This document shows positions 1 through 12,464 of a DNA stretch of 64,000 nucleotides, piece by piece. Positions within the stretch are counted from its first letter, which is position 1, and every line of letters begins with the position of its first letter. The notes under the pieces were generated by a model that had not been told where the DNA came from, searched no databases, and saw only the letters and a program-made list of their open reading frames with translations. The translations under genes and the position numbers were made by a program. The stretch spans positions 288,001-352,000 of the forward strand of contig OZ254086.1 of assembly GCA_965267575.1 (NCBI GenBank), given 5' to 3'. Source of the DNA: Calditrichales bacterium. GTDB lineage: Bacteria; Calditrichota; Calditrichia; Calditrichales; J004.

Positions 1-2
1 AA

Positions 3-326
3 AACGCTGACCAGCTCTTGACCAATTCGACCTTGACCAAAATGAAGCAAATTGGAGAGCAATTTAAAGGGAAACCATATGACATTTACTTTGAGTGGTC
101 AGACGACAAAATCTATTGCTCTGAACTCGTTTGGAAAATTTACAAGCAAGCAACAGACATTGAAATCGGAGAACTTGAGCAACTATCAGACTTTGACTTA
201 ACAAATGATATTGTGAAAGCTAAAATGAAAGAAAGATATGGAGACAGTATCCCAATGGACGAAAAAGTGATTTCTCCGGCTGCTATGTTCAATTCAGACA
301 AACTCGTAACAGTCAAAACCAACTGA
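3..326 (+). CDS. YiiX/YebB-like permuted papain (NlpC/P60) family protein, 5'-truncated by window edge
   Basis: Frame open to the left edge; motif GKPYD..F.WSDDKIYCSELVWKIY. Confidence 0.8.
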   Translation, partial: NADQLLTNSTLTKMKQIGEQFKGKPYDIYFEWSDDKIYCSELVWKIYKQATDIEIGELEQLSDFDLTNDIVKAKMKERYGDSIPMDEKVISPAAMFNSDKLVTVKTN

Positions 327-328
327 CA

Positions 329-679
329 ATGAAAAAATGGGTTTTCAGAATATCGATTTTGCTCAACATAGCCTTACTAATTGGCTGGGGTTTAAGCAGT
401 CTAAATAGACCTTCATACAAATTAGGCCGTTTAGAAAAGGATATTACAGTTGGCAACTTTATGGGAGACTCTCTCTTATTTACGTTACCAAAAGGACTGA
501 CAGTAAGAAATGCTTCAGAGCGCGGACTAAATGCAATTGGACAGTTTGAAAATAAAAGATTTCAAATCGTAATTTCTTCAGATGATGAACTTGTAAATTA
601 TGATTTACCACTTGACAGTTTAGGTCCGAATGGCAATTACTATTCGGCTGACTTTGACAAGTATAACAATGAAAAATAA
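329..679 (+). CDS. hypothetical protein with N-terminal hydrophobic anchor (cassette gene)
   Basis: 116 aa ORF, hydrophobic N-terminus, stop lies just before an attC-like site. Confidence 0.7.
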   Translation: MKKWVFRISILLNIALLIGWGLSSLNRPSYKLGRLEKDITVGNFMGDSLLFTLPKGLTVRNASERGLNAIGQFENKRFQIVISSDDELVNYDLPLDSLGPNGNYYSADFDKYNNEK

Positions 680-688
680 AAAATACGT

Positions 689-751
689 GTGGCAACAACG
701 GCTATAGCACATGCCCTTCGGGACACGTGCCATAGCCAAACCGTTGTGCGT
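689..751 (+). repeat. non-canonical attC-like recombination site 1
   Basis: GTGGCAAC-aac-GGCTATaGCACaTG...CAcGTGCcATAGCC-aaacc-GTTGTGCGT. Confidence 0.8.
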
Positions 752-871
752 CACCCTGAAAACCCACCGCACATTTAACACATTTGGTTTTTTGCCGACA
801 CAAAAGCCATCCCTAAAAAACCAAAAGAGCTAAATCACCCACCGCTGACAAAGACGAACTGTTAAAAACTA

Positions 872-913
872 TATTTAAGAATTTGCTTAAATAAGAAACA
901 ATTTGTATCTTTG
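872..913 (+). promoter_or_regulatory. Bacteroidota-type promoter (TTTG-N20-TATCTTTG) overlapped by a likely ArsR operator
   Basis: TTTG 882-885, TAnnTTTG 906-913; inverted repeat TATTTAAG-N6-CTTAAATA 872-893 upstream of the ArsR gene. Confidence 0.65.
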
Positions 914-992
914 CTGCGTTATTAAATCCTAAACAGGAAACCGCAAGGTTCAATCTGACTGATTAAAACAATTAAAAAAACAGATTAATATT

Positions 993-1370
993 ATGGAAAA
1001 CAATCAATCGTGTATCAGAGTGTTTGCCGACAAGGTTCAAATAGACAATTGTAGAGAAATACTTCAAACCAATGACAAGGCATTCAGCCAACTGAGTGGA
1101 CTTTTAGCATTGGCAGGAAACGAAGTAAGGTTGAAAATCTTATTTCTCTTAGAAGAAGAAAACGAGCTTTGTCCTTGCGACCTTTCAGACATTCTCGGAA
1201 TGAGCATCCCTGCCGTTTCGCAACACCTCAGAAAACTAAAAGACGGAAACGTCATTGAAGGAAGAAGAGAAGGACAGACCATTTTCTACTCTTTGAAACA
1301 AGAGCAACTGACTTTACTTCGACCATTTTTTAAACACATCATAAACAATTCAAAAAAGGAAACAGTATGA
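993..1370 (+). CDS. ArsR/SmtB family metalloregulator
   Basis: RLKILFLL...ELCPCDL...SIPAVSQHLRKLK HTH signature. Confidence 0.9.
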   Translation: MENNQSCIRVFADKVQIDNCREILQTNDKAFSQLSGLLALAGNEVRLKILFLLEEENELCPCDLSDILGMSIPAVSQHLRKLKDGNVIEGRREGQTIFYSLKQEQLTLLRPFFKHIINNSKKETV

Positions 1371-1972
1371 ACAAGAAAAACAACAGACTTGTCGGAGCGG
1401 GAGTACTTTCGGCAGTAGCAGCATCACTTTGCTGCATTACACCTGTATTGGCTCTTATTTCAGGAGCATCAGGCGTGGCATCTACATTTTCGTGGATGGA
1501 ACCAGCAAGACCTTATCTTATCGGTATCACCGTTTTGGTGTTAGGCTTTGCTTGGTATCAGAAACTCAAACCACGAACAGCCGAAGAAATCCAATGTGAT
1601 TGCGAAGATGACGAAAAGAAACCCTTTATGCAGACCAAAACATTTTTGGGAATTGTAACCGTGTTTGCAGCCTTGATGCTCGCTTTTCCAAACTATGCAC
1701 ATATTTTCTATCCTTCAAACGACAATAAGGAAGTTGTAATCGTCAATGCCTCTGACATCCAAACAGTAACTTTTGATGTAAAAGGAATGACTTGCACTGG
1801 TTGTGCTTCACACGTAGAAAATGACGTTAACAAATTACCAAGCATTGTTAAGGTAGATGCGATTTATGAAGAAGCGACTGCCAAAGTAGAATTTGACCAA
1901 ACTAAAGTGAGTGTTGCTCAAATTGAAGAAGCCATCAACGGTACAGGTTACAAAGTGGTTGGCAAGAAATAG
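1367..1972 (+). CDS. merTP: mercuric transport protein, MerT-MerP fusion
   Basis: ASLCCITP transmembrane Cys pair plus C-terminal GMTCTGC HMA domain; upstream of merA. Confidence 0.88.
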   Translation: MNKKNNRLVGAGVLSAVAASLCCITPVLALISGASGVASTFSWMEPARPYLIGITVLVLGFAWYQKLKPRTAEEIQCDCEDDEKKPFMQTKTFLGIVTVFAALMLAFPNYAHIFYPSNDNKEVVIVNASDIQTVTFDVKGMTCTGCASHVENDVNKLPSIVKVDAIYEEATAKVEFDQTKVSVAQIEEAINGTGYKVVGKK

Positions 1973-2019
1973 TATTTTTTTGCCTCTCGTATTTAAGAAC
2001 TTAATTAAATAATTACGCA

Positions 2020-2382
2020 ATGAAAAAGAATAATTTGATTCTATTATGTGCTTTGTTCCTTATTCGAATTAGTCAGGTCAATGCTCAATGTTGCAAACCG
2101 ACTGACAATAAAGCACAAACAACAAGTTCGATCCAGCAAGAAGGAAAAACCCTGATAGTGAAAATCACGGGAATGACTTGTGCAGGTTGTTCCAACCATA
2201 TCTCAAATGCCCTCAAAGAAGTGGAGGGAATTATGTAACACAAAGTGGAATATCCGGGCGATTTGGCAATTATTCAATACGACCCGAAGAAAACAAATCC
2301 TGATGCTATCATCAAGGTTATTGAACAGACAGGCTATAAAGCCGAAATCATAAAAGAAACTCAAAAAAAGAAATCATTATGA
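2020..2382 (+). pseudogene. secreted HMA (MerP-like) protein with internal TAA at 2236-2238
   Basis: Signal peptide and GMTCAGC; frame continues past TAA (HKVEYPGDLAIIQYDP...GYKAE) to TGA 2380-2382 overlapping the merA ATG. Confidence 0.8.
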
Positions 2383-4031
2383 ACAAAGAAACCATAAAAC
2401 TTGACATCACAGGTATGACCTGCGACCACTGTGCCACAAGCATTGAAAAACTACTTTCTAAAAATGAAGGTGTAAAAGAAGCTAATGTGAGCTATCCAAA
2501 AGCCACTTGTGAATGTTCTTTTGACCCTGCCAAAACCAGCAAAGAAGAAATCATCAACACCATCAACGGCACGAAAAACTATCGTGTAAAAAGTGAAATC
2601 CCAGAAAATGGAAGCAGTGGCAAAAACCAATTTGACCTTATAATAATAGGTGGCGGTTCGGCTGCATTTTCGGCAGCTATCAAAGCGGAAAGTTTAGGTC
2701 TATCGACTTTAATGGTAAACGGTGGATTGGACTTTGGCGGGACTTGCGTCAATGTGGGTTGTGTACCTTCTAAAAACCTAATCCGTGCAGGTGAAACTGC
2801 TCATCACGCTACGCATTCCAACTTTGAAGGCATCAAACCAATAGGAGTTGACATTGATTTTGCTCAAATCATCAAAGACAAGAAAAAATTAGTAGCCACA
2901 CTTCAAGAGAAAAAATATATGGATGTGGTGAGCGATTTTGAAAACCTGACTATGTTAAAAGGTTGGGCAAAATTCAAAGACCCAAAAACCATTGTAGTGG
3001 ACGGCAAGGAATATAAAGCCATCAAATTTTTAATAGCCACGGGAGCTACTACCAACATCCCGACTATTGAAAGATTGGACAAAATTGACTATTTGACAAA
3101 TGTTTCTCTTTTCGATTTGGAAGAAAAACCCGAAAGCCTGACCATTATGGGAGCAGGTTACATCGGCTTGGAAATCGCAATGGCTTACAATCGTTTAGGC
3201 GTAAAAGTCCGCATCATTGAATTTACCGACCGAGTATTACGGACACAAACCCCCGACATCAGCGAAGCATTGGAAACCCAAATGCGAAAAGAAGGTATTG
3301 AAATCTTACCAAATTTCAGAGCCGTAAAATTCGAGAAACAAGGAAATGAAACCATCATTCACTGTAAATGTCCTGACGGTTCATTTACGCAAATAGTAGA
3401 AAATGGGAAGGTCGTAATTGCCACAGGAACAAAAGCCAATACAAACCAATTAGGAATAGAAAACATTGGTTTGGAACTCACCAAAAGCGGACATATCGCT
3501 GTAAATGAAAAGATGGAAACTAATCTATCCCACATTTACGCAGCAGGTGACGTAACCAACACCCCTGCATTTGTTTACACAGCCGCCTTTGAAGGAAAAA
3601 TAGCCATTGAAAATGCTTTTTCAGGAACAGAAAACAAAGCCGATTATTCCTCTTTACCTTGGGTAGTTTTTACTGACCCACAAGTTGCAGGTGCAGGTTT
3701 AGACGAAGCACAGGCAGAAGTCAAAGGCATTCCGTTTGAAGTTTCAAAATTGGAACTGAAAGACGTGCCAAGAGCAATTGCAGCAAATGACACAAGGGGA
3801 TTTATCAAACTCATTCGCAACACCGAAACGGACAAATTGATAGGAGCGAGAGTGGTCGCACCCGAAGGCGGAGAACTTATCCAACAATTAAGTATGGCAA
3901 TCAAATACGGAATAACGGTGAAAGACTTAGCAGACAGTTTCTACCCTTATTTGACTTTGGGAGAAGGCATAAAATTAGCAGCCATAACTTTCGGAAAAGA
4001 CGTATCGAAATTAAGTTGCTGTGCCAGTTAA
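2379..4031 (+). CDS. merA: mercury(II) reductase
   Basis: N-terminal GMTCDHC HMA domain, GGTCVNVGCVPSK redox centre, C-terminal vicinal CC. Confidence 0.95.
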   Translation: MNKETIKLDITGMTCDHCATSIEKLLSKNEGVKEANVSYPKATCECSFDPAKTSKEEIINTINGTKNYRVKSEIPENGSSGKNQFDLIIIGGGSAAFSAAIKAESLGLSTLMVNGGLDFGGTCVNVGCVPSKNLIRAGETAHHATHSNFEGIKPIGVDIDFAQIIKDKKKLVATLQEKKYMDVVSDFENLTMLKGWAKFKDPKTIVVDGKEYKAIKFLIATGATTNIPTIERLDKIDYLTNVSLFDLEEKPESLTIMGAGYIGLEIAMAYNRLGVKVRIIEFTDRVLRTQTPDISEALETQMRKEGIEILPNFRAVKFEKQGNETIIHCKCPDGSFTQIVENGKVVIATGTKANTNQLGIENIGLELTKSGHIAVNEKMETNLSHIYAAGDVTNTPAFVYTAAFEGKIAIENAFSGTENKADYSSLPWVVFTDPQVAGAGLDEAQAEVKGIPFEVSKLELKDVPRAIAANDTRGFIKLIRNTETDKLIGARVVAPEGGELIQQLSMAIKYGITVKDLADSFYPYLTLGEGIKLAAITFGKDVSKLSCCAS

Positions 4032-4166
4032 TCCGACCCAAAGGCACACACTCTTGCAACTCGCACCAGCCAACGCTTGACCAAAAATTGCAAGAGAGAG
4101 TGCCTTCCCTACCCCAAAAAATCCTACCTTTGAAAATTGACTAAACCGACTTAAAATAAAGGGCGA

Positions 4167-4299
4167 ACGCACAACATTGTGTATAAGCAATAGCGGGTGA
4201 AGTGGTAAATCGAAGGTCTGTGTCTTTTATAAACATTGTGCTAAACTGAAAGTTTTGTACTTTTAAATCCGCTACTGCTCATACACTTGACCGTTAAAC
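4167..4299 (+). repeat. non-canonical attC-like recombination site 2
   Basis: ACGCACAAC-att-GTGTATaAGCAaTAGCGG...CCGCTAcTGCTcATACAC-ttgacc-GTTAAAC. Confidence 0.8.
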
Positions 4300-4327
4300 T
4301 AAAATAAACAACCCAATCATATCCCCC

Positions 4328-4410
4328 TTCCCCCACACAACTTTCAATAAAATCCGTTATGCCGTCACGAACCGCCAGGGACATATGAATAATGCCGCGT
4401 TTAACCTTCC
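4328..4410 (+). pseudogene. relic 5' fragment of an acyl-CoA thioesterase gene
   Basis: Translates FPHTTFNKIRYAVTNRQGHMNNAAF versus FPVKTFDKIRYADTDCQGHVNNAAF in the gene at 5654. Confidence 0.7.
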
Positions 4411-4551
4411 GGTCAGAACGGCAAAACCACACTGCTGACAGAATGATGCTAAAAGAAGCTGTCACTGGTTCCTCACGGGTGGCAAATCCTGAACCCACGG
4501 GCAACTCTTCCATTCGTAATTTTCACATTCCTAATTCGTAATTGAATACAC

Positions 4552-4581
4552 TTGTATGTTTCCTGTGGCGCAGATATTTTC
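4552..4581 (+). promoter_or_regulatory. sigma70-like promoter, copy 1 (TTGTAT-N17-TATTTT)
   Basis: 24 of 30 bases identical to 13165-13194; both precede MDR dehydrogenase genes. Confidence 0.55.
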
Positions 4582-4636
4582 GGTTTAATTAAATAGCCCA
4601 TAACTACAGGCCGGCTACACGGAAAGCATTCTCATC

Positions 4637-5629
4637 ATGTCCGAAGAAAATAATCTTATGAAAGCCTTTAGATTTAAGAAATACGGGTTGCCCACTGTGC
4701 TTGAGATTGAAGAAGTTGCAAAACCGGTACCGGGCGACGAGGAGGTGCTGGTGAAAATCCACGCCGCTGCCATCAATGACTCGGATTGGGGACTGGTAAG
4801 GGGCAAGCCATTTGTGATTCGTCTGTTCTACGGTCTTAAAAAACCAAAAATAAATATTCCGGGCGTGGATATTTCAGGCAAAGTAGAAGCGCTGGGCAGT
4901 AACGTGAATTCCTTCAAAGTCGGTGATGAGATTTACTGCGACTTGTCGGAATGCGGCTTTGGCGGGTTTGCCGAATATGTGTGTGTTCCGGAAAAAGTAT
5001 TATCCAAAAAGCCTTCCAACATTAGTTTTAATGATGCCGCTGCTCTGCCCCACGCCAGTCTGCTGGCACTTCAGGGACTGGTGGAAAAGGGAAAGGTCAA
5101 ATCCGGACAGAGTGTCCTCATCAACGGTGCCGGGGGAGGTGTGGGCACCCTGGGACTGCAAATCTTAAAATCATACGAGCTCAAAACTACAGGCGTCGAC
5201 AGCGACGAAAAACTTGATATGATGAAAGCGTTGGGATTTGACAACGTGATCGATTATAAAAAGGTGGACTTCACCGAAACCGGAGAAAAGTATGACCTGA
5301 TCCTTGATGCAAAATCAAACAGGTCCGTATTTAAATACGCTCGCTCGCTCAAAAAGAACGGCACTTACGTCACAGTCGGTGGATCGATGTACCGGTTGTT
5401 CGAAATACTATTGCTGGGGTCACTCATTTCGCTTTTCAGCAGCAAGAAGCTGAGCGTACTGGGCCTTAAACCCAATAAGGGACTGGACCGGATTTCCGAT
5501 CTTGTGGAAAAGGGACAAATAAAACCTGTTGTTGACGGCCCCTATAAGTTTGATGAAATCCCGCGGCTGCTTCAATACTTTGGTGAAGGCAGGCACAAGG
5601 GAAAGATTGTGGTTGAAATAAAAAAATAA
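4637..5629 (+). CDS. NAD(P)-dependent MDR-family oxidoreductase (alcohol dehydrogenase/quinone reductase-like)
   Basis: GroES-like N-domain, GGFAEYVCV, INGAGGGVG, C-terminal GKIVV. Confidence 0.9.
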   Translation: MSEENNLMKAFRFKKYGLPTVLEIEEVAKPVPGDEEVLVKIHAAAINDSDWGLVRGKPFVIRLFYGLKKPKINIPGVDISGKVEALGSNVNSFKVGDEIYCDLSECGFGGFAEYVCVPEKVLSKKPSNISFNDAAALPHASLLALQGLVEKGKVKSGQSVLINGAGGGVGTLGLQILKSYELKTTGVDSDEKLDMMKALGFDNVIDYKKVDFTETGEKYDLILDAKSNRSVFKYARSLKKNGTYVTVGGSMYRLFEILLLGSLISLFSSKKLSVLGLKPNKGLDRISDLVEKGQIKPVVDGPYKFDEIPRLLQYFGEGRHKGKIVVEIKK

Positions 5630-5653
5630 TGTCACAAAAAACGATATACTCCG

Positions 5654-6085
5654 ATGAATTATCCAGGCTTAAATACCTTCCCTGTTAAAACCTTCGATAA
5701 AATCCGCTATGCCGATACGGACTGCCAGGGGCATGTGAACAATGCCGCTTTTTTGACCTTCCTGGAAACGGGCCGCGTGGAGATTTTATACAACCCCGAA
5801 AACGCCCTTCTCGCGCAAGGGGCCAGCTTTGTCATTGCCTCTCTGAAGCTGGATTTTCTGAAAGAGATCAACTGGCCCGGCCGGGTGGATATCGGCACGG
5901 GGATTTCCAAAATCGGCAACAGCTCGATCACCTTTTACCAGCAGCTGTTTCAAAACGGAGCCTGTGTCGCAAGTGCTGAAACGGTTATTGTGCAGGTAGA
6001 TGACAATAATGGCAAAAGCAAGCCTTTAACGGAGGGCGCAAAGAAAAGGCTGGCCGCTTGGCTGTTGGCCGAGAGCAAAGCCTGA
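5654..6085 (+). CDS. acyl-CoA thioesterase (4HBT/hotdog family)
   Basis: RYADTD..GHVNNA motif. Confidence 0.9.
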   Translation: MNYPGLNTFPVKTFDKIRYADTDCQGHVNNAAFLTFLETGRVEILYNPENALLAQGASFVIASLKLDFLKEINWPGRVDIGTGISKIGNSSITFYQQLFQNGACVASAETVIVQVDDNNGKSKPLTEGAKKRLAAWLLAESKA

Positions 6086-6133
6086 ATGGGTAGAGTAATC
6101 TTCAAACGCATCAGGTATGATTTGTTTTTTATT

Positions 6134-6220
6134 TTTAACAAGATATATTCCGTGTCACACGAAACTAAAACCAATACATATTCGCGTTATACGCATTCGT
6201 ATAGCAAGACGTTGGGGGCA
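6134..6220 (+). repeat. degenerate attC-like site
   Basis: TTTAAC (complements GTTAAA at 4293) ... GTATAGC-aagac-GTTGGGGGCA; stem poorly preserved. Confidence 0.5.
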
Positions 6221-6279
6221 ATGTAGAAACGAACGACACAGAACAAGGTAAGCCGACAAATTAGAAGTAAATTAGCAGC

Positions 6280-7578
6280 ATGGAAAATGAAGTACAAGAA
6301 CCTCAATTAGAACTCTTCAAAAGAGAGACAAATAATAACGGAAAGGCAGATTTGACTTCAACCTTTGCAGACAACATGAAACTGCCTATTCATAGGTGGT
6401 ACAGGTATACAGCAGGCTTCTCAGGACCTTGGGTAAGAGAATTGATTGAAAGTGAAAATGGACAAAACGTACTCGACCCTTTCGGTGGCTCGGGTACAGT
6501 GATGCTTGAAGGTGAATACGCAGGAATTAATTCAATTGGAATTGAAGCTCATCCTTACGTTTATAGAATCGCAAAGGCAAAACTATCTTGGCAAATAGAC
6601 CCTAAAGATTTCAAAGAATCTGCAAAACAGCTACTCGAAAAAGCTAAGTCAAAGAGAATCGATAAAAAGGAGTATCCTAAACTTATTGAGAAGTGCTATC
6701 CCATTGAAATACTCGAAAAACTTGAAGCATTAAAAGTAGCTTGGATCGAATCAACAGATGACACAATTCTCAAAGAACTCAATTGGTTTGTTATCACAGC
6801 CATTCTCAGAACAACTTCGCCAGTTGGAACTGCACAATGGCAATATATTCAACCTTCAAAGACCAAAGGAAAAGTCATTGATGTGTTTCATGCTTTTGAA
6901 GCTAAGGTGTACGAAATGGCTCAGGACATGCAAAATATGCAAAGACGTTTTCCCAACGCAACAAAGAGCGAAATTTTCATGGAAGATGCCAGACATATGC
7001 CTTCCGTTGCAGACAATTGGGCCGATCTTGTAATAACGTCTCCACCTTACGCTAACAATTATGACTATGCAGATGCGACAAGACTTGAAATGACTTTTTG
7101 GGGAGACATTGATGGATGGGGAGATCTGCAAGAGAAGGTTAGAAAATTTCTTGTAACTGCTTGCACACAACATGTTACTAGCTTAAAGGATAAAGCGTCC
7201 GAGATATTAGAATCGCCATTGTTGACACCAATTAGACAAGAGATTACTGATGTGTTTAATGAATTGGCTGAAACAAGGTTAACTCGGGGTGGCAAAAAGA
7301 ATTATCACTTAATGATAATTGCATATTTCAAAGACCTTGCGGAAGTATTTCACGAGTTAAGAAGAGTAACAAAGAAGGGATGTAAGGTATGTTTTGTCGT
7401 TGGCGACAGTGCTCCATACGGAGTTTATGTGCCAGTCGATAAATGGTTAGGTGAACTTGCAGTTTATGCAGGTTTTGAATCATACGAATTTGAAAAACTT
7501 CGTGATCGTAATACAAAATGGAAAAACAGAAAACATAGAGTCCCTTTGCATGAAGGAAGACTTTGGATAAAAGGATAA
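6280..7578 (+). CDS. amino-DNA methyltransferase (probably N4-cytosine, alpha motif order)
   Basis: Motif I LDPFGGSGT precedes motif IV ITSPPY. Confidence 0.88.
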   Translation: MENEVQEPQLELFKRETNNNGKADLTSTFADNMKLPIHRWYRYTAGFSGPWVRELIESENGQNVLDPFGGSGTVMLEGEYAGINSIGIEAHPYVYRIAKAKLSWQIDPKDFKESAKQLLEKAKSKRIDKKEYPKLIEKCYPIEILEKLEALKVAWIESTDDTILKELNWFVITAILRTTSPVGTAQWQYIQPSKTKGKVIDVFHAFEAKVYEMAQDMQNMQRRFPNATKSEIFMEDARHMPSVADNWADLVITSPPYANNYDYADATRLEMTFWGDIDGWGDLQEKVRKFLVTACTQHVTSLKDKASEILESPLLTPIRQEITDVFNELAETRLTRGGKKNYHLMIIAYFKDLAEVFHELRRVTKKGCKVCFVVGDSAPYGVYVPVDKWLGELAVYAGFESYEFEKLRDRNTKWKNRKHRVPLHEGRLWIKG

Positions 7579-8456
7579 TGGCAAAATCACCAGCACATAA
7601 ATGGGGGCAAATAATAGGAGACTTTCTTGAAGAAGTCTTTGCTACTGAACTTTCAAAGTTTGCCCGAAAACATAAGTTATACTTAGACACTCAAGGCGAC
7701 CGTCCGGCTCGATCAGGGAAAAAGGTGAGTTGGATTGACACATTTGAAAATTCTCATGACTTGGATTTTGTTCTTGAAAGAAATGGAACGAAAAACAAAA
7801 TTGGAGACCCAGTTGCATTCATTGAAAGTGCTTGGAGAAGGTACACCAAGCATTCAAGAAATAAAGCTCAAGAAATCCAAGGTGCTATTTTACCATTAGT
7901 AGCTACACATAAGAATTTTGCTCCTTTTATGGGAGTTATGTTAGCAGGAGAATTTACAGGCGGAGCATTGAATCAATTAAGATCATTAGGCTTCCATGTT
8001 CTTTACTTCCCTTATGATTTGATTCTTCAGGCATATAAAAAGTATGGCATAGATGCAAGCACTGAAGAAAACACGACTGAGAAAGATTTTCAAAATAAAA
8101 TTGACAAGTGGGAGAAATTTGATGATAAAAAGAAGTTGGCCAATTACCTTCTGAGACTGAATAAGGTTGAAGTAGAAACTTTTTTTGAAAGTCTTGAAAA
8201 GGCCGTATCAAGGTATATCGAATCAATTAGTGTTTTGCCTTTGCATGGAGCTTCAAATACTTTGACAACGGTTAAAGAAGCGATAGACTTTATTGAAAGC
8301 TACCAAAACGAAAATGGAAGCCTTCCTGTTTTGAAATACGAAATTGTAGTTCGATACAATAACAAGGACAAGGTTGAAGGTATTTTCAATTCAAAAGAAT
8401 CTGCAATTGAGTTTCTTGAGTCGTATGCTGCTCCTAAACCTAAGGACAAAAAATAA
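7578..8456 (+). CDS. putative type II restriction endonuclease
   Basis: TAATG coupling to the MTase; acidic nuclease-like stretch HDLDFVLE...AFIESAWRRYTKH; role inferred from context. Confidence 0.65.
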   Translation: MAKSPAHKWGQIIGDFLEEVFATELSKFARKHKLYLDTQGDRPARSGKKVSWIDTFENSHDLDFVLERNGTKNKIGDPVAFIESAWRRYTKHSRNKAQEIQGAILPLVATHKNFAPFMGVMLAGEFTGGALNQLRSLGFHVLYFPYDLILQAYKKYGIDASTEENTTEKDFQNKIDKWEKFDDKKKLANYLLRLNKVEVETFFESLEKAVSRYIESISVLPLHGASNTLTTVKEAIDFIESYQNENGSLPVLKYEIVVRYNNKDKVEGIFNSKESAIEFLESYAAPKPKDKK

Positions 8457-8464
8457 AAAAACAC

Positions 8465-8601
8465 TGCCCCCAACAATGGGTATAAAACATAGGGCGGATA
8501 GTGGTTTCCGCAAATTTCGGGTTCTTAGCAAGCTTAGTCTCGGTGGACAAGTTCGCAGCTCCGAAATGCCCTACGTTTCATACCCGAGACCGTTGTGGCT
8601 A
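8465..8601 (+). repeat. non-canonical attC-like recombination site 3
   Basis: TGCCCCCAAC-aat-GGGTATaAAACaTAGGGC...GCCCTAcGTTTcATACCC-gagacc-GTTGTGGCTA. Confidence 0.8.
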
Positions 8602-8628
8602 ATTTAAAACCTGTCGTTCCAGAATTTT

Positions 8629-9654
8629 ATGACAAAGAAAAAAAAGACCTTAATAATCAGAATCCTATTGTTCAGTGGAACGGCAATCTCAATGTTTTTT
8701 GTACCGTGGATATTGGTAAAGGCTTGGATTTTACCCCTACCTGATACAATTCAAGAACAAGTAGATGAAGCAATTGGGCATGGGTTTGATGGAATGGTTG
8801 TCTACATAGACCAAGCGGGAAAACAACCCCAATTTTATACAGGCGGGTGGAAAGATAGAATAAAGAAAATTCCAGCCGACCCAAATTCGCTATTCAAAAT
8901 TGCCAGCATAAGCAAACTTTATACAGCAGTGGCGGCCACCAAGTTGGTCAAAGAAAACCGCTTGTCATTTGACAAAAAACTAACAGATTATCTACCGGAA
9001 CTAAAAGGCAGAATAGAAAATGCTGAAGAAATCACTTTGAAAATGATGATTCAACATCGGTCCGGGATTCCTAATTATACAGATAATCCAGAGTATTGGT
9101 TAGATGAACAAGAGAATGGTAAAAATGCCTTAGATTTTGCCTTAGATTTACCTGCCAGCTTTAAACCAGACAAGGACTATGAATATTCTAACACCAATTA
9201 TTTGTTGCTGCGCAAGATTATGGATAAGGTTTTAGGATACAATCATAACGAATATATCAAAGAAAAAATTTTGAGACCCCTTAACCTTAAAAACACCTTT
9301 TTTTCAATTAACGAAGTGGATTTAGAAGATGTGATGAGTGGTTACTATGTGGGGTATAACGAAGATTTTAAAGCTCGTGAATATGGAATGCTGGCTACAG
9401 CAGAAGATGCTGGTATTTTCTTGCGAGCCTTAAACGAGGGTTCGGTGTTTGACGAGGGAGAAAAGGAAATCTATCCTTATGAATATAATCATGGAGGTTT
9501 GGTAGTCGGCTATCAAAGCCTTGCAGAATATCACCAAGATATTGATGCTGTAATTGTTCAATTTATCAACACTACGGATTTTGAAGGTTATGAATGGAAT
9601 TTATCGGAAATTACAATTAACCGAATTGTGAAAATTTTAAGAAAGAAAAACTAG
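8629..9654 (+). CDS. serine hydrolase, beta-lactamase/PBP-like family (cassette gene)
   Basis: SxxK (ASISK), YxN (YSNTNY), HGG; stop codon overlaps TAGCCACAAC. Confidence 0.88.
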   Translation: MTKKKKTLIIRILLFSGTAISMFFVPWILVKAWILPLPDTIQEQVDEAIGHGFDGMVVYIDQAGKQPQFYTGGWKDRIKKIPADPNSLFKIASISKLYTAVAATKLVKENRLSFDKKLTDYLPELKGRIENAEEITLKMMIQHRSGIPNYTDNPEYWLDEQENGKNALDFALDLPASFKPDKDYEYSNTNYLLLRKIMDKVLGYNHNEYIKEKILRPLNLKNTFFSINEVDLEDVMSGYYVGYNEDFKAREYGMLATAEDAGIFLRALNEGSVFDEGEKEIYPYEYNHGGLVVGYQSLAEYHQDIDAVIVQFINTTDFEGYEWNLSEITINRIVKILRKKN

Positions 9655-9672
9655 CCACAACACGGTGTGTGT
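9652..9672 (+). repeat. truncated attC-like site (left end only)
   Basis: TAGCCACAAC is the reverse complement of GTTGTGGCTA (8592-8601); followed by acg-GTGTGT with no right arm. Confidence 0.65.
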
Positions 9673-9795
9673 AATTTTGTCTACCTTATGAAAAAGCAAA
9701 AATTAATTATTGTACTACTTTTTGGACTTTCAAATTTATCTATCATTGAAAATTCAATGTCAGTTCGTAGAAGCCCCGATAAAACATAGTAGAAA

Positions 9796-11598
9796 ATGAG
9801 CACCCACATACCCATATCATCCAATAAATCCATTGCGGTTCTCCCCTTTGTTAATATGAGTGCCGACCCAGATAATGAATACTTCAGCGATGGGATTACC
9901 GAAGAAATAATCAACGCCCTAACCACCGTGAAGGGCTTGAAAGTCATTGCCCGCACATCCTCTTTTGCGTTTAAGAATAAAAATATAGATGTGCGAACCA
10001 TTGGTGATCTGTTAGGAGTAAGTACGGTTTTGGAGGGGAGCATCCGGAAAGTCAAAAACAGGGTACGCATTACAGCGCAGTTAATCAGTACGAATGACGG
10101 CACTCACTTCTGGTCGAAAAATTTTGATCGGGATTTGGAGGACATATTTGCACTACAAGATGAAATAAGTTTAAACATTGCAGACCAGATCCGGGAAAAT
10201 TTTGGTCATCTCCATATTCGGGAACATCTGATTGAAGCGCCTACACAAAATATGGAGGCCTACAACCTTTATCTTAAAGGTCGCTACCATCATTTAATGT
10301 GGGACGGACAAGGAATCGCAAATGCAATAGAACTCTATGAACAGTGTGTAGCGATAGACCCCTCATTTGCTTTGCCTTACTTTGGTTTGGCTTATTGTTA
10401 TGCAATGGCCGGATCCTGGGGAAATAATAAAGGCTTATTACAGATGTCAGAAGAGGATCTCAGCAAAGGTTTTAATTTAGACAAACAATCCTACGTAGGG
10501 TATTTCAGTAAAGCGACATTGTCCTTTTGGGGGCAATGGGATTTCATCAAGGGGCATAAATTTTTTCAAAAATCAATAGAGCTGAATCCATCCTATACGG
10601 AAGCAGAAGAAGGTTTATGCGAATTGTATACAGCAGTAGGTTATTTTGAAAAAGCGCACCGGCATACTGATAATATTTTAAAAATAAATCCTTTATCTCC
10701 GAACCATTATTTTACCAAAGCAAATATTTATTATCTAAACGAAGACTACACGAAAGCTTTAGAATGTATAGAGACCTCTTTGAGCATCAATCCGGATTTC
10801 ACACATTCCATCGCATTAAAACAACTTTGTTTAATTCTTTCGAAAGATTACGAAAAGCTAAATGACTTCTTAGGTCAAACCCCTTTGGCCGAGAGACCAG
10901 AAGAATGCAGAGTATTGTACAAGTTGGTCAATCCGGAAGAAAAGATCGATGTTGATATCAGCAGGGTTAGCTTAATGATAAAAGAAGATTCCGGGGGAAC
11001 GCTTTTTCCCTGGCAACTTTTTTTGTTGGTCTATTTGGACAAACACGAAATGGCATTGGACTTTTTGGAAGAAAACATCAGGATGCGTACCGGTCAAATC
11101 ATAAACTTTATGAATATTCCGTTCCTTAAACCCTTGCGCCGGCATAAGCGATTTCAAGATTTAGTACAAGCTGCTTTCGGGGTAGAACTCTTGCCACCTA
11201 ATCCCGAAAAACAAATACGAATTGACCCTCCCAAGACATTGATGTCAGTTACTGAAATCGACAAGCTTTTAGAAATATTAGGAAAGGGAATGAAGGAAGA
11301 AAAGTGGTTTCAAAAGCCATCTTTAACTTTACGCGAGCTGGCCGAAAACCTGACTATTAGCAGTAACCAGCTTTCCTGGTTGCTAAATGAACAAATTGGC
11401 CAAAATTTCAATGAATACATCAATAGTTTTCGTTTGGAGAACTTCAAAGAGAAGGCCCTAAATCCTGCCAATAGCCACCTTACCCTTTTAGCGCTAGCTT
11501 ATGAAAGCGGCTTCACTTCTAAATCGGTATTCAATACCTACTTTAAAAAAACCGAAGGGATGACACCGAAAGCCTGGCTGCGGTCTAATCAAATTTAA
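9796..11598 (+). CDS. TolB_N-like/TPR/AraC-HTH transcriptional regulator
   Basis: SIAVLPFVNMS..EYFSDGITEEII N-domain, TPR-like repeats, C-terminal LAYESGFTSKSVFNTYFKK. Confidence 0.88.
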   Translation: MSTHIPISSNKSIAVLPFVNMSADPDNEYFSDGITEEIINALTTVKGLKVIARTSSFAFKNKNIDVRTIGDLLGVSTVLEGSIRKVKNRVRITAQLISTNDGTHFWSKNFDRDLEDIFALQDEISLNIADQIRENFGHLHIREHLIEAPTQNMEAYNLYLKGRYHHLMWDGQGIANAIELYEQCVAIDPSFALPYFGLAYCYAMAGSWGNNKGLLQMSEEDLSKGFNLDKQSYVGYFSKATLSFWGQWDFIKGHKFFQKSIELNPSYTEAEEGLCELYTAVGYFEKAHRHTDNILKINPLSPNHYFTKANIYYLNEDYTKALECIETSLSINPDFTHSIALKQLCLILSKDYEKLNDFLGQTPLAERPEECRVLYKLVNPEEKIDVDISRVSLMIKEDSGGTLFPWQLFLLVYLDKHEMALDFLEENIRMRTGQIINFMNIPFLKPLRRHKRFQDLVQAAFGVELLPPNPEKQIRIDPPKTLMSVTEIDKLLEILGKGMKEEKWFQKPSLTLRELAENLTISSNQLSWLLNEQIGQNFNEYINSFRLENFKEKALNPANSHLTLLALAYESGFTSKSVFNTYFKKTEGMTPKAWLRSNQI

Positions 11599-11631
11599 GC
11601 TGGTTTAAAAGGTGTCAAATCTCACTATAAA

Positions 11632-11653
11632 GTCCGAAATTACATTTCAGGAC
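11632..11653. promoter_or_regulatory. inverted repeat, candidate operator of the AraC-family regulator
   Basis: GTCCGAAAT-tac-ATTTCaGGAC between the regulator and downstream genes. Confidence 0.4.
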
Positions 11654-11813
11654 GATTCATCTTTCTTTTAACTCCACTTTTGCATCCATCAATTCAGTAA
11701 AGCAGAGTAAATAATCATCGGATGATGATTTCTTTCCTCTTTATCAGATGAACTATCGATAACGGGAGGGGCTTTGTAGAAATCGGAATTTCAAAAAAAG
11801 GAGTCGTATTATC

Positions 11814-12464
11814 ATGAAAAGTCTATTTACAATTTTTTTGTTTTTTTGCACACTTAGTGCTTTTGCTCAGGTTAAATCACCGGAGAGTAATGCAACTGAA
11901 GTTGCCCATGAGTACAGGGTAAGTTTACCTTATTTTGTTCCGGAAGGGCTTATCGTGGATTCCTGGGACGATCGAACAAGTACACGACACTTAGAGCTTC
12001 ATATAAAACGTAACCTGGATAATAAAAATATCATAGGTTTGAAGTTTACCTCCTGGCGATTGTTTCAACCAATGGGAATCACATGGTGGGATGGTCTTTT
12101 AGATAAGCTCGAGACAGAAAGTGAATTCTATCCAGGACATGTGCGAGAAATAGGAATAGGTATAACATACCAGCGTATGCTATGGAAAGGACTATTTGCA
12201 ACTGTTGAAGTTCTACCGCAATTTCAAACCTACTTGGATCTAGACGGTAAAAAAATTGGAAATGATTTTAAACTTTATACGTCGTATCATCTTGGCTACC
12301 ATATCGCATTTGGTGAGGAAAAACGATTTTTTATAGAACCACAAATTAATTGTATGTACTGGATGTTTGACAACAATGCTCCTGATGGATTTAAGCAGCT
12401 GGATGATAAATGGAGAAACTACTTTCTTTTTGAGCCGCAGATTTACTTAGGGATAACATTTTAA
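11814..12464 (+). CDS. putative outer-membrane beta-barrel protein
   Basis: Signal peptide, amphipathic strands, C-terminal YLGITF. Confidence 0.65.
   Translation: MKSLFTIFLFFCTLSAFAQVKSPESNATEVAHEYRVSLPYFVPEGLIVDSWDDRTSTRHLELHIKRNLDNKNIIGLKFTSWRLFQPMGITWWDGLLDKLETESEFYPGHVREIGIGITYQRMLWKGLFATVEVLPQFQTYLDLDGKKIGNDFKLYTSYHLGYHIAFGEEKRFFIEPQINCMYWMFDNNAPDGFKQLDDKWRNYFLFEPQIYLGITF

Follow-up and report, generated by a model that had tools for sequence, protein, structure and literature searches.

How might a recombinase choose between the two strands of a folded site if neither strand offers a flipped-out base? The question is raised by a gene array at the start of a 64,000-nucleotide stretch of a Calditrichales bacterium genome (hereafter the window), where hairpins with A.C mismatches at stem positions 7 and 12 lie between groups of genes. 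A preliminary description of this DNA proposed that the fixed mismatches take over the strand-selecting role of the extrahelical bases of canonical attC sites. The canonical integron combines an integrase (IntI), an attI site and attC sites, as exemplified by VchIntIA and a bottom-strand VCR site (PDB: 2a3v). No description of a system such as the one reported here was found in the literature searched.

Cassettes and sites of the window array

The array comprises the following features, given in window coordinates.

1-686, + strand: 3' part of cassette 1 (open reading frames and Pfam matches), with a Peptidase_C92 gene (ending at 326) and a 116-aa ORF (329-679)
687-745, + strand: S1, a short attC-like site (hairpin scan), made up of R'' box 687-696 (ending in AAC), spacer 697-699, 5' arm 700-713, loop, 3' arm 724-737, spacer 738-742 (ending in ACC) and GTT 743-745
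744-4293, + strand: cassette 2, a mercury-resistance operon (Pfam), with genes for an ArsR-type HTH protein (993-1370), MerT-HMA (1367-1972), HMA (2020-2238) and a MerA-like reductase (2379-4031)
4167-4295, + strand: S2, a long attC-like site (hairpin scan), made up of R'' 4167-4175, spacer 4176-4178, 5' arm 4179-4196, variable terminal part, 3' arm 4269-4286, spacer 4287-4292 and GTT 4293-4295
4294-6101, + strand: stretch after S2 (Pfam), encoding a zinc-type alcohol dehydrogenase (4637-5629) and a thioesterase (5654-6085)
6102-6213, + strand: attI-2, a second attI-like copy, ending in GTT at 6211-6213
6212-8592, + strand: methyltransferase cassette (open reading frames and Pfam), with an N6/N4 DNA methyltransferase gene (6280-7578) and a 297-aa ORF (7563-8456)
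8466-8594, + strand: S3, a long attC-like site (hairpin scan), made up of R'' 8466-8474, spacer 8475-8477, 5' arm 8478-8495, 3' arm 8568-8585, spacer 8586-8591 and GTT 8592-8594
8593-9651, + strand: last cassette (Pfam), with a serine hydrolase gene of the PF00144 beta-lactamase family (8629-9654)
9652-9690, + strand: S4, remnant of a fourth array site, an R'' box followed by a 3-nt spacer

The anatomy of the three complete sites is as first described. The A.C pairs occupy stem positions 7 and 12 in S1 (A706.C731 and A711.C726), S2 (A4185.C4280 and A4190.C4275) and S3 (A8484.C8579 and A8489.C8574), all other pairs of positions 1-14 are Watson-Crick, with S2 and S3 paired to position 18, and the three sites share a TAT core (positions 4-6) and ACC before GTT. 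A fourth complete site with the same pattern lies on the minus strand at C1:2697192. Extrahelical or bulged bases are absent from all four sites of this genome, whose arms are of equal length through 14-18 pairs. The S4 remnant lacks both the TAT core and the 3' arm.

Each R'' box points back to the junction before it. For S1, this box is an exact reverse complement of GTT+6 at attI-1, which lies 1220 nt upstream and is where cassette 1 begins, outside the window (attI-1 GTT at C1:287468-287470); the R'' boxes of S2, S3 and S4 are likewise the reverse complements of GTT+6 after S1, at attI-2 and after S3, respectively. For GTT+6 after S2, no partner R'' box was found that would close the 4294-6101 stretch, which probably represents the former right flank of attI-1 and not a cassette. 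The attI-2 copy closely matches the attI-1 region up to GTTG, is followed by unrelated sequence, and takes in some 30 nt from the 5' end of a recombinase gene that has lost its start codon. Three attI-like copies are present in the genome, each diverging right after GTT, and the recombinase lies beside only one of them. The same signature extends to 46 homologous sites detected in 80 related loci (class A; 29 distinct 5' arms, 31 sources): in 41 of them an exact reverse complement of the R'' 9-mer lies at most 10 kb upstream, where the preceding site or attI has its GTT, against 2/46 in a shuffled control. A second set, class B, behaves similarly (25/30 sites).

The mercury cassette recurs, at about 90-95% likeness, in another strain (76-kb contig) and in contigs from metagenomes, and the homology begins at the G of the S1 GTT and ends at the end of the S2 3' arm. 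Contigs of run X9 cover the 6212-8592 cassette and stop at the S3 GTT; its methyltransferase and 297-aa ORF, the latter with no Pfam match, are a probable restriction-modification pair. Loci L034 and L017 have homologues of the serine hydrolase on their cassette side (78% and 67% identical, respectively). All 11 annotated cassette ORFs of the array are on the + strand, which indicates that orientation is controlled. The junction signature, the attI-like copies that diverge after GTT and the recurrence of a cassette elsewhere with unchanged boundaries bear out the earlier reading of the hairpins as attC-type sites, and support S1-S3 as putative attC-like recombination sites bounding mobile gene cassettes in an integron-like array.

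Conservation and covariation of the mismatched stems

The genome (4.73 Mb, both strands) was scanned for AAC-N3-[14-nt arm]...[14-nt arm]-N5/6-GTT, with at most three non-Watson-Crick pairs allowed at any position. Among 78 hairpin matches, A.C at both positions 7 and 12 occurs in only four, namely the three window sites and C1:2697192. Mismatches across all 78 are spread evenly over positions 1-14, each position having 9 to 20 of them, and the 7/12 pattern is therefore no artefact of the search design. In the 80 related loci, the sequence on the cassette side of the recombinase (0.54 Mb of strand) contains 58 matches, of which 35, in 27 loci, carry both A.C pairs and 9 more carry A.C at 12 only, whereas the remaining strand-sequence of these loci (1.88 Mb) gave 46 matches, none with both and two with A.C at 12 only. 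Since only three mispairs are tolerated and two are already spent at 7 and 12, the scan is biased against such sites, not towards them. It detects ungapped arms only, so that sites with bulged bases in related loci would be missed; one such site was noticed by eye in L034.

The expected invariance of both positions holds for one of them. Position 12 is A.C in 46/46 class A sites, while position 7 is A.C in 38/46 and Watson-Crick or otherwise different in the other eight, and is dispensable in a TAA variant. Class B has A.C at the same distance from AAC (+15) in 30/30 sites. Position 12 stays unrepaired in every site of both classes, though one transition would suffice, and neither of its sides ever changes (76/76 sites). 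Class B sites also have a T.G pair on the top strand near the stem base, a feature that partly defined their selection; it becomes a C.A mismatch on the bottom strand, so the statement that the bottom strand has only wobbles is not general. Elsewhere in positions 1-18, 7 and 12 excepted, additional mispairs are A.C or C.A in 11 cases, the type that becomes G.T on the bottom strand, versus G.T or T.G in 4. Other nearly invariant features are TAT (positions 4-6) and T-A (position 13); the spacer is asymmetric (3 nt vs 5-6 nt), ending in ACC in 32/46 sites. The junction rule alone yields 69 cassette-end sites, 34 of them already in the scan set; the other 35 have A (22), T (11) or C (2) at +15, and about nine of these are 'E' elements with a perfect outer stem. 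The A.C feature is common, not universal.

Around these positions the stem changes in a concerted manner. In the bottom-strand reading of 35 long sites, 97.1% of cells are paired; compensatory change is seen at 13 of 22 pairs (13 of the 18 stem pairs). The covariation score of 0.553 compares with 0.144 in shuffles (0/500 reach 0.553) and with at most 0.097 when partners are slid. Stem columns are free of gaps among these 35 aligned sites, those from related loci coming from a scan confined to ungapped arms. Stem pairs next to positions 7 and 12 covary. R'' and R', for their part, are variable, complementary over at least 9 nt and 52-205 nt apart, so they would pair only by folding; tips are poorly conserved. 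This AAC-to-GTT span falls within the usual length range of attC sites. The covarying 18-bp stem and the complementarity of the distant R''/R' boxes favour the folded single-stranded form suggested at the outset, in that the sites appear to be selected to fold within one strand.

A recombinase lacking the I2 insert

A tyrosine recombinase of 280 aa is encoded just upstream of the window (C1:286547-287389), divergent from the array and with attI-1 about 80 nt from its start codon. It matches PF00589 and PF13495, and scores highest in this genome against the IntI model TIGR02249 (221.6 bits vs a cut-off of 265, in two stretches without model positions 180-237), a cut-off passed by no protein of this genome. 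The XerA model NF040815 is passed (240.1 bits vs a cut-off of 220). Against VchIntIA (2a3v), residues 4-179 and 203-276 align to 4-178 and 245-318; about 40 residues, corresponding to the I2 insert, are missing between residues 179 and 203. The closest fold to the predicted structure (pLDDT 88.5) is archaeal XerA 4a8e (Z 24.0, 256 residues aligned, rmsd 10.1), followed by archaeal XerA 5hxy (Z 21.4) and then 2a3v (Z 19.9). Among 17 relatives, residues R136, K161, H225, R228, H251 and Y260 are either invariant or conserved to 90% or more. Relatives of the protein carry the name 'site-specific tyrosine recombinase/integron integrase' in NCBI records and, in some cases, 'site-specific recombinase XerD' in JGI/IMG. 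By sequence, the protein is XerA/IntI-like and without the IntI-specific I2 insert. The gene stands beside divergent arrays with such sites in 37/80 related loci (the arrays are co-directional in Flavobacterium loci), and other Xer-like genes lie elsewhere in the genome; because of both, the genomic context argues against chromosome dimer resolution at dif as its main role.

The locus shares with canonical integrons a tyrosine recombinase with the catalytic R-K-H-R-H-Y set adjoining an attI-type site and a co-oriented cassette array, cassettes ending in an imperfect palindrome of R'' (...AAC) and R' (GTT...) with crossover at G|TT, and sites whose central spacer is unpaired and whose terminal structure varies. 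Unlike in those systems, the recombinase is without I2 and below the IntI cut-off, the L stem has equal arms and, in place of extrahelical bases, fixed A.C (top) or G.T (bottom) pairs, and the spacer is asymmetric. A cassette can moreover consist of an operon of several genes that includes its own regulator, as in the 3.4-kb mercury operon, attI-like copies stand at three places with the recombinase beside one, and the Flavobacterium arrays are co-directional. One account (PMC7790495) describes I2 as recognising the extrahelical bases of attC, and ties its acquisition to a change from double-strand to single-strand DNA recombination.

Three other systems offer partial parallels. With XerCD/CTX-phi-type IMEX, as portrayed in PMC7790495, the locus shares an I2-less Xer-type recombinase and, in the proposed reading, a folded single strand with an unpaired centre mimicking a duplex core site. 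Those elements differ in that host chromosome-dimer resolvases and dif integrate a whole phage genome, with no dedicated recombinase, attI or cassette array. To our knowledge, fixed wobble pairs have not been reported for them. Archaeal XerA provides the best family score and the closest predicted fold, and is likewise a lone recombinase that has about 280 aa and no I2; however, it resolves chromosome dimers at one double-stranded dif site, whereas the present gene lies beside variable cassette arrays in FCB-group bacteria with long covarying hairpin sites. The attI-derived sequence inside the array (attI-2) recalls the Delta-attI-type cassettes of mobile integrons (PMC12901181), which belong to class 1-type integrons with canonical IntI.

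Possible roles of the fixed wobbles

We consider it fairly probable that the hairpins are attC-like sites of an integron-like platform, in which wobbles and asymmetric spacer mark the strand for an I2-less recombinase. The recombinase would join an attI-like double-stranded site to cassette-borne sites at G|TT; every cassette would start with TT and finish with the G of the site that it carries. After excision as a circle, its variable R'' box would pair with R', and the folded strand would consist of the R duplex, the asymmetric unpaired spacer, the 18-bp L stem and the variable tip. By analogy with integrons, the single-stranded substrate would be the bottom strand. The wobbles would fall inside the arm bound by the non-cleaving monomer, or at its border, and, with the spacer, may mark strand and orientation for a protein unable to read flipped-out bases.

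The two folded strands are not equivalent, as had been noted, since the A.C mismatches at 7 and 12 become G.T wobbles on the bottom strand. The bottom strand is predicted to be more stable in 41/46 sites and the top strand in 5/46 (mean -17.06 vs -14.82 kcal/mol, mean difference 2.25 kcal/mol, Wilcoxon p = 7e-7). This includes S1 (-17.4 vs -14.1), S2 (-14.4 vs -13.1) and S3 (-24.3 vs -19.4 kcal/mol), where the gap is modest (1.3 to 4.9 kcal/mol). Such a bias could itself be the whole function: the pairs, unread by any protein, would stabilise the bottom-strand over the top-strand hairpin and, as the cassette ORFs are on the top strand and the A.C version would therefore be the one transcribed, would weaken the hairpin in the sense RNA, thereby limiting termination or translation blocks between cassettes. 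We regard this as a tentative, rather unlikely alternative. Pure energetics would permit any stem position and either polarity, yet position 12 has A in the 5' arm and C in the 3' arm in 46/46 class A and 30/30 class B sites, fixed at +15 from AAC, and the top-strand T.G of class B works against a bottom-strand advantage.

A little less likely, in our estimation, is that the recombinase contacts specific bases, for instance the T's of the bottom 3' arm and the G's of the 5' arm, so that two different half-sites arise and the non-Watson-Crick geometry is incidental. The near-invariant TAT and T-A at position 13 do indicate that the arm is read partly by sequence, and attI-like sites hold a related core motif as ordinary duplex; however, the partner of a single read base could change, and position 12 is fixed on both sides in 76/76 sites. 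That the sites are ordinary double-stranded Xer/dif-like sites, whose hairpin potential merely reflects inverted binding arms, we judge improbable. It would suit a recombinase that passes the XerA model, has XerA as its closest predicted fold and is without the I2 whose gain is tied, in PMC7790495, to the change from double-strand to single-strand DNA recombination, but not boxes that are variable, complementary over at least 9 nt, 52-205 nt apart and joined only by folding, nor a stem that covaries over 18 bp without sequence conservation, in a genome with other Xer-like genes elsewhere. Inheritance from one ancestral sequence, with two neutral relic mismatches, or chance fits the counts poorly and is very improbable: some site families do recur in several genomes (two 5' arms, seven times each), but among the 29 distinct arms positions 1-3 come in 12 variants and positions 8-11 in 19, compensatory changes affect 13/18 stem pairs, the single transition that would repair position 12 was never fixed, and the pattern is absent away from the arrays (0/46 control matches).

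Within the integron-like reading, the asymmetric spacer with its conserved ACC is a rival determinant that could by itself set polarity. The wobbles may plausibly take the place of extrahelical bases as the strand code of this platform.

Hairpin sites with mismatches at fixed stem positions

On the + strand the three intact attC-like sites S1, S2 and S3 are built alike. A variable outer box (R'', ending AAC) is separated by a spacer of 3 nt from the 5' arm, in which TAT occupies positions 4-6. Beyond the loop, or a longer tip, comes the complementary 3' arm, which is followed by a 5-6-nt spacer with terminal ACC and then by GTT, the start of the second outer box, R'. The preliminary description held that A.C pairs at stem positions 7 and 12 are the sole non-Watson-Crick pairs among the first 14 positions of all three sites, and a base-by-base check confirmed this.

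Intact sites of the genome with A.C at both stem positions
S1, window 687-745, + strand: A706.C731 and A711.C726
S2, window 4167-4295, + strand: A4185.C4280 and A4190.C4275
S3, window 8466-8594, + strand: A8484.C8579 and A8489.C8574
Fourth intact site, C1:2697192 (C1 being the contig of the window, which spans C1:288001-352000), minus strand: A.C at 7 and 12 in the genome hairpin scan

The fourth site came from a scan of the whole 4.73-Mb genome for hairpins with the S1-S3 layout, in which up to three mispairs were tolerated at any position. The scan returned 78 hairpins, four of which (S1, S2, S3 and one more) have A.C at both 7 and 12; since mispairs are spread evenly over positions 1-14 across the 78 matches, the 7/12 pattern is not made by the scan. 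It was used in place of simple motif searches, which barely exceeded chance within the window. A repeat search seeded with 9 nt missed the sites, whose stems are cut by the two mismatches into runs below seed length, and scanning window 1-10000 against Rfam at E <= 1 yielded two chance-level matches far under gathering scores and none at the sites. The AAC-to-GTT span is 121-124 nt in most sites (alignment A2 of the sites; compare window 4179-4286 and 8478-8585), a constant length. The variable tip contains some conserved stretches, and that of S3 forms extra helices, branched on the bottom strand.

A collection of genomes at species level contains 265 stretches with relatives of the recombinase encoded beside the array. 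Of these, the best 80 (45-81% identity) belong to Calditrichota, Balneolaceae, Marinimicrobia/Fidelibacterota, Ignavibacteriales, Cytophagales and Flavobacterium, and every best alignment of these 80 loci has a gap total of at most 23. On the cassette side of the 80 loci the hairpin scan gave 58 matches, with A.C at both 7 and 12 in 35 of them (27 loci) and at 12 only in nine; elsewhere, in 3.5 times as much sequence, it gave 46 matches, with A.C at both in none and at 12 only in two. From these we assembled class A, the 46 related sites with a TAT or TAA core (one match in locus L085 was left out as a false positive), comprising 29 distinct 5' arms from 31 sources. The claim that both mismatches are fixed held in this larger collection for position 12, which is A.C in 46/46 sites, and in part for position 7, which is A.C in 38/46, the exceptions mostly accompanying the TAA variant at positions 4-6. 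ACC precedes GTT in 32/46 sites.

In the 35 long sites the stem aligns without gaps and 97.1% of cells pair on the bottom strand, a figure to which site finding contributes at positions 1-14; covariation, positions 15-18 and the placement of mispairs are independent of it. Read on this strand, positions 7 and 12 are G.U in 29/35 and 35/35 long sites, respectively. The folded stem posited by the preliminary description is supported by covariation: compensatory change occurs at 13 of 22 pairs, with a score of 0.553 versus 0.144 for shuffled alignments, a value reached by none of 500 shuffles, and slid partners give at most 0.097. One transition would be enough to restore pairing at position 12; such a change is never fixed, a sign of selection for the mispair as such. 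The fixed non-Watson-Crick pair is a real and widespread feature that is under selection.

A further set, class B, comprises 30 sites in eight loci, mostly from Flavobacterium, whose arrays lie downstream of the recombinase and are co-directional with it. The A.C of class B stands at +15 from AAC, as in class A, in 30/30 sites. Class B sites with a 2-nt spacer occur in long arrays on the + strand of L069 (11344-20652), L079 and L084 (Flavobacterium), and L069 holds at least 12 class B sites in 9 kb.

Cassette junctions and mobility

The attI-like region that separates the recombinase gene from the first cassette (attI-1) contains a perfect 8-bp inverted repeat and a terminal GTT. A sigma-70-type promoter scan of this region found two sites versus 1.8 expected, Bacteroidota-type promoters lying outside the scan. 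GTT and the next six bases at attI-1 have their exact reverse complement in the R'' box of S1, and the corresponding nine bases after S1 have theirs in the R'' box of S2. The R'' box of S3 mismatches the junction after S2 and corresponds instead to GTT and the next six bases of attI-2, a second attI-like copy inside the array; a single cassette running from S2 to S3 was therefore rejected. attI-2 closely resembles the attI-1 region, includes ~30 nt of the 5' end of the recombinase gene with the start codon lost, and its likeness ends directly after GTT. Since the three R'' boxes match attI-1, S1 and attI-2, the window is read as two tandem platforms.

Platforms in the window and elsewhere on the contig
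Platform 1: attI-1, cassette 1 (Peptidase_C92 and a small ORF), S1, cassette 2 (mercury operon), S2
Between the platforms: 1.8 kb with a dehydrogenase and a thioesterase, closed by no site
Platform 2: attI-2 (window 6102-6213), methyltransferase cassette, S3, PF00144 hydrolase cassette, truncated site S4 (window 9652-9690)
C1:2697070-2698200 (L090, about 11070-12200), minus strand: third attI-like site, cassette, fourth intact site

The third attI-like copy has no adjoining recombinase. A lone cassette of 996 nt, with ORFs of 210 and 118 aa, begins there and is closed by the fourth site; the single recombinase may serve several attI sites in trans. The site after the PF00144 hydrolase cassette is truncated in the window, and in locus L017 (about 700-600, minus strand) it is a short site with ATT in place of GTT. 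The last sites in arrays appear to decay.

The junction rule extends to class A as a whole: in 41/46 sites the exact reverse complement of the R'' 9-mer lies within 10 kb upstream, versus 2/46 for a shuffled 9-mer, and the matching 9-mer is always at the GTT of the preceding site or of an attI-type sequence. The sequences of R'' and R' differ from cassette to cassette; the two are complementary over at least nine bases and stand 52-205 nt apart. For them to meet, an excised or single-stranded cassette must fold within its own strand, and this requirement is the chief argument against an ordinary double-stranded site.

Applied alone, the junction rule identifies 69 cassette ends, of which 34 were already in the scan set. 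The other 35 have A at +15 in 22 cases, T in 11 and C in two, and about nine of them are 'E' elements with a perfect outer stem. 'E' is an ORF-less mini-cassette of ~120 nt, present in several identical copies in Balneolaceae arrays (L030 9860-9789, 8408-8357, 5981-5930 and 5263-5212; also L011, L017, L039 and L046). Either of two 5' arms can pair with its one 3' arm; the first is perfectly Watson-Crick, and the second differs from it solely by G to A, at the very two positions that give A.C at 7 and 12.

For mobility, contigs of four public runs were compared with C1:284001-300000 (L089), any uncovered part of which is not evidence of absence. The mercury cassette recurs in a 76-kb contig of another strain with the same species label at roughly 90-95% likeness, the homology extending from the G of S1's GTT to the last base of S2's 3' arm, beyond which the contig goes on with a spacer of its own, a GTT and unrelated flanking sequence. 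A metagenome contig (run X9) shows the same ending, and in runs X9 and X7 homology to S3 goes no further than its GTT. Arrays of other loci also contain relatives of the mercury genes and of the hydrolase. In the strain of run X21 and in the X9 metagenome, the mercury cassette carries 970 extra letters at window 2359-2379 (L089 6359-6379), between merA and the small HMA gene; a cassette is thus variable in the genes it contains.

Asymmetry between the two strands

By complementarity, each top-strand A.C is a G.T wobble on the bottom strand, as the preliminary description had pointed out, and DNA folding agrees that the two strands are not equivalent: the bottom strand is the stabler in S1 (-17.4 vs -14.1 kcal/mol), S2 (-14.4 vs -13.1 kcal/mol) and S3 (-24.3 vs -19.4 kcal/mol), and in 41/46 class A sites overall, with a modest gap between the means (-17.06 vs -14.82 kcal/mol). 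The remaining mispairs at positions 1-18, excluding 7 and 12, are likewise biased (11 A.C/C.A, four G.T/T.G). Bottom-strand stability and this bias fit the view that, as in integrons, selection acts on the bottom strand. The interpretation in the preliminary description is supported in part, and its further proposal that the fixed mismatches choose the recombining strand is plausible; against it, class B sites carry near the stem base a top-strand T.G, one of the criteria by which the class was selected, and this becomes a real mismatch on the bottom strand. The fixed pair may be a strand selector, a role for which the asymmetric spacer, itself conserved, is a credible competitor.

The recombinase and its relation to integrons

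The array is accompanied by a 280-aa tyrosine recombinase with conserved catalytic residues.

C1:286547-287389, opposite strand, ~0.6 kb upstream of the window: recombinase gene

This protein is the top match in the genome to the integron-integrase model, yet it scores under the model cut-off and matches in two pieces, skipping model positions 180-237, and it passes the XerA model NF040815 (240.1 vs 220 bits). Aligned with the integrase VchIntIA (2a3v), it matches on both sides of the IntI-specific insert I2 and lacks ~40 residues there. Its predicted structure (pLDDT 88.5) is nearest to archaeal XerA (4a8e, Z 24.0; 5hxy, Z 21.4), followed by 2a3v (Z 19.9). Relatives go by the name 'site-specific tyrosine recombinase/integron integrase' in NCBI records and by 'site-specific recombinase XerD' in those of JGI/IMG.

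We considered whether a canonical IntI had recently lost I2; the best 150 of 1.84 billion representatives (236-331 bits) argue against this. None is split around query residues 180-203, as an I2-bearing protein would be; 135 match in one stretch, and the 15 with two stretches are proteins of 414-672 aa whose best stretch takes in almost all of the query. For VchIntIA the score is just 153 bits. Many of the closest representatives (P0004-P0150; 45-51% identity) are 350-650 aa long, with N-terminal extensions of 90-370 aa that have no Pfam match; some of these proteins have a second SAM-like domain.

Integron integrases are described as having passed from double- to single-strand recombination through acquisition of the I2 helix, for which the extrahelical bases serve as landmarks when it recognises attC (PMC7790495). 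Strand selection is ascribed to the extrahelical bases of attC, to its central spacer and to its terminal structure (PMC6393395), and the insert has been called 'not fully conserved' in an integron-like subgroup, without further analysis (PMC8138268). The cassette platform works like a canonical integron, with the genetic signature of cassette exchange; however, a canonical integron has the I2 insert and extrahelical bases, whereas the platform has neither and shows an invariant non-Watson-Crick pair instead. Because it falls short on both of these defining points, we do not file it as a canonical integron. Within the main texts searched, which included few subscription journals, we found no description of an I2-less integron-like system or cassette platform, of attC wobble pairs, or of integrons in Balneolaceae or Gracilimonas; the word 'wobble' has zero occurrences in the attC papers returned.

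We tentatively propose, with somewhat less than even confidence, that a widespread lineage of I2-less XerA-like recombinases runs integron-type cassette arrays with folded single-stranded DNA sites, in which conserved wobbles or mismatches, each at a set distance from the R box, would form a strand and orientation code replacing flipped-out bases. If true, single-strand cassette recombination would be independent of I2 in origin, or older than it. The platform offers a natural setting in which to ask whether hairpin recombination depends on I2, and its fixed pair would be a second and simpler recognition code, open to engineering. Any integron finder that insists on the IntI insert would overlook such arrays in environmental FCB-group bacteria, together with the mercury-resistance, restriction-modification and hydrolase genes they carry.
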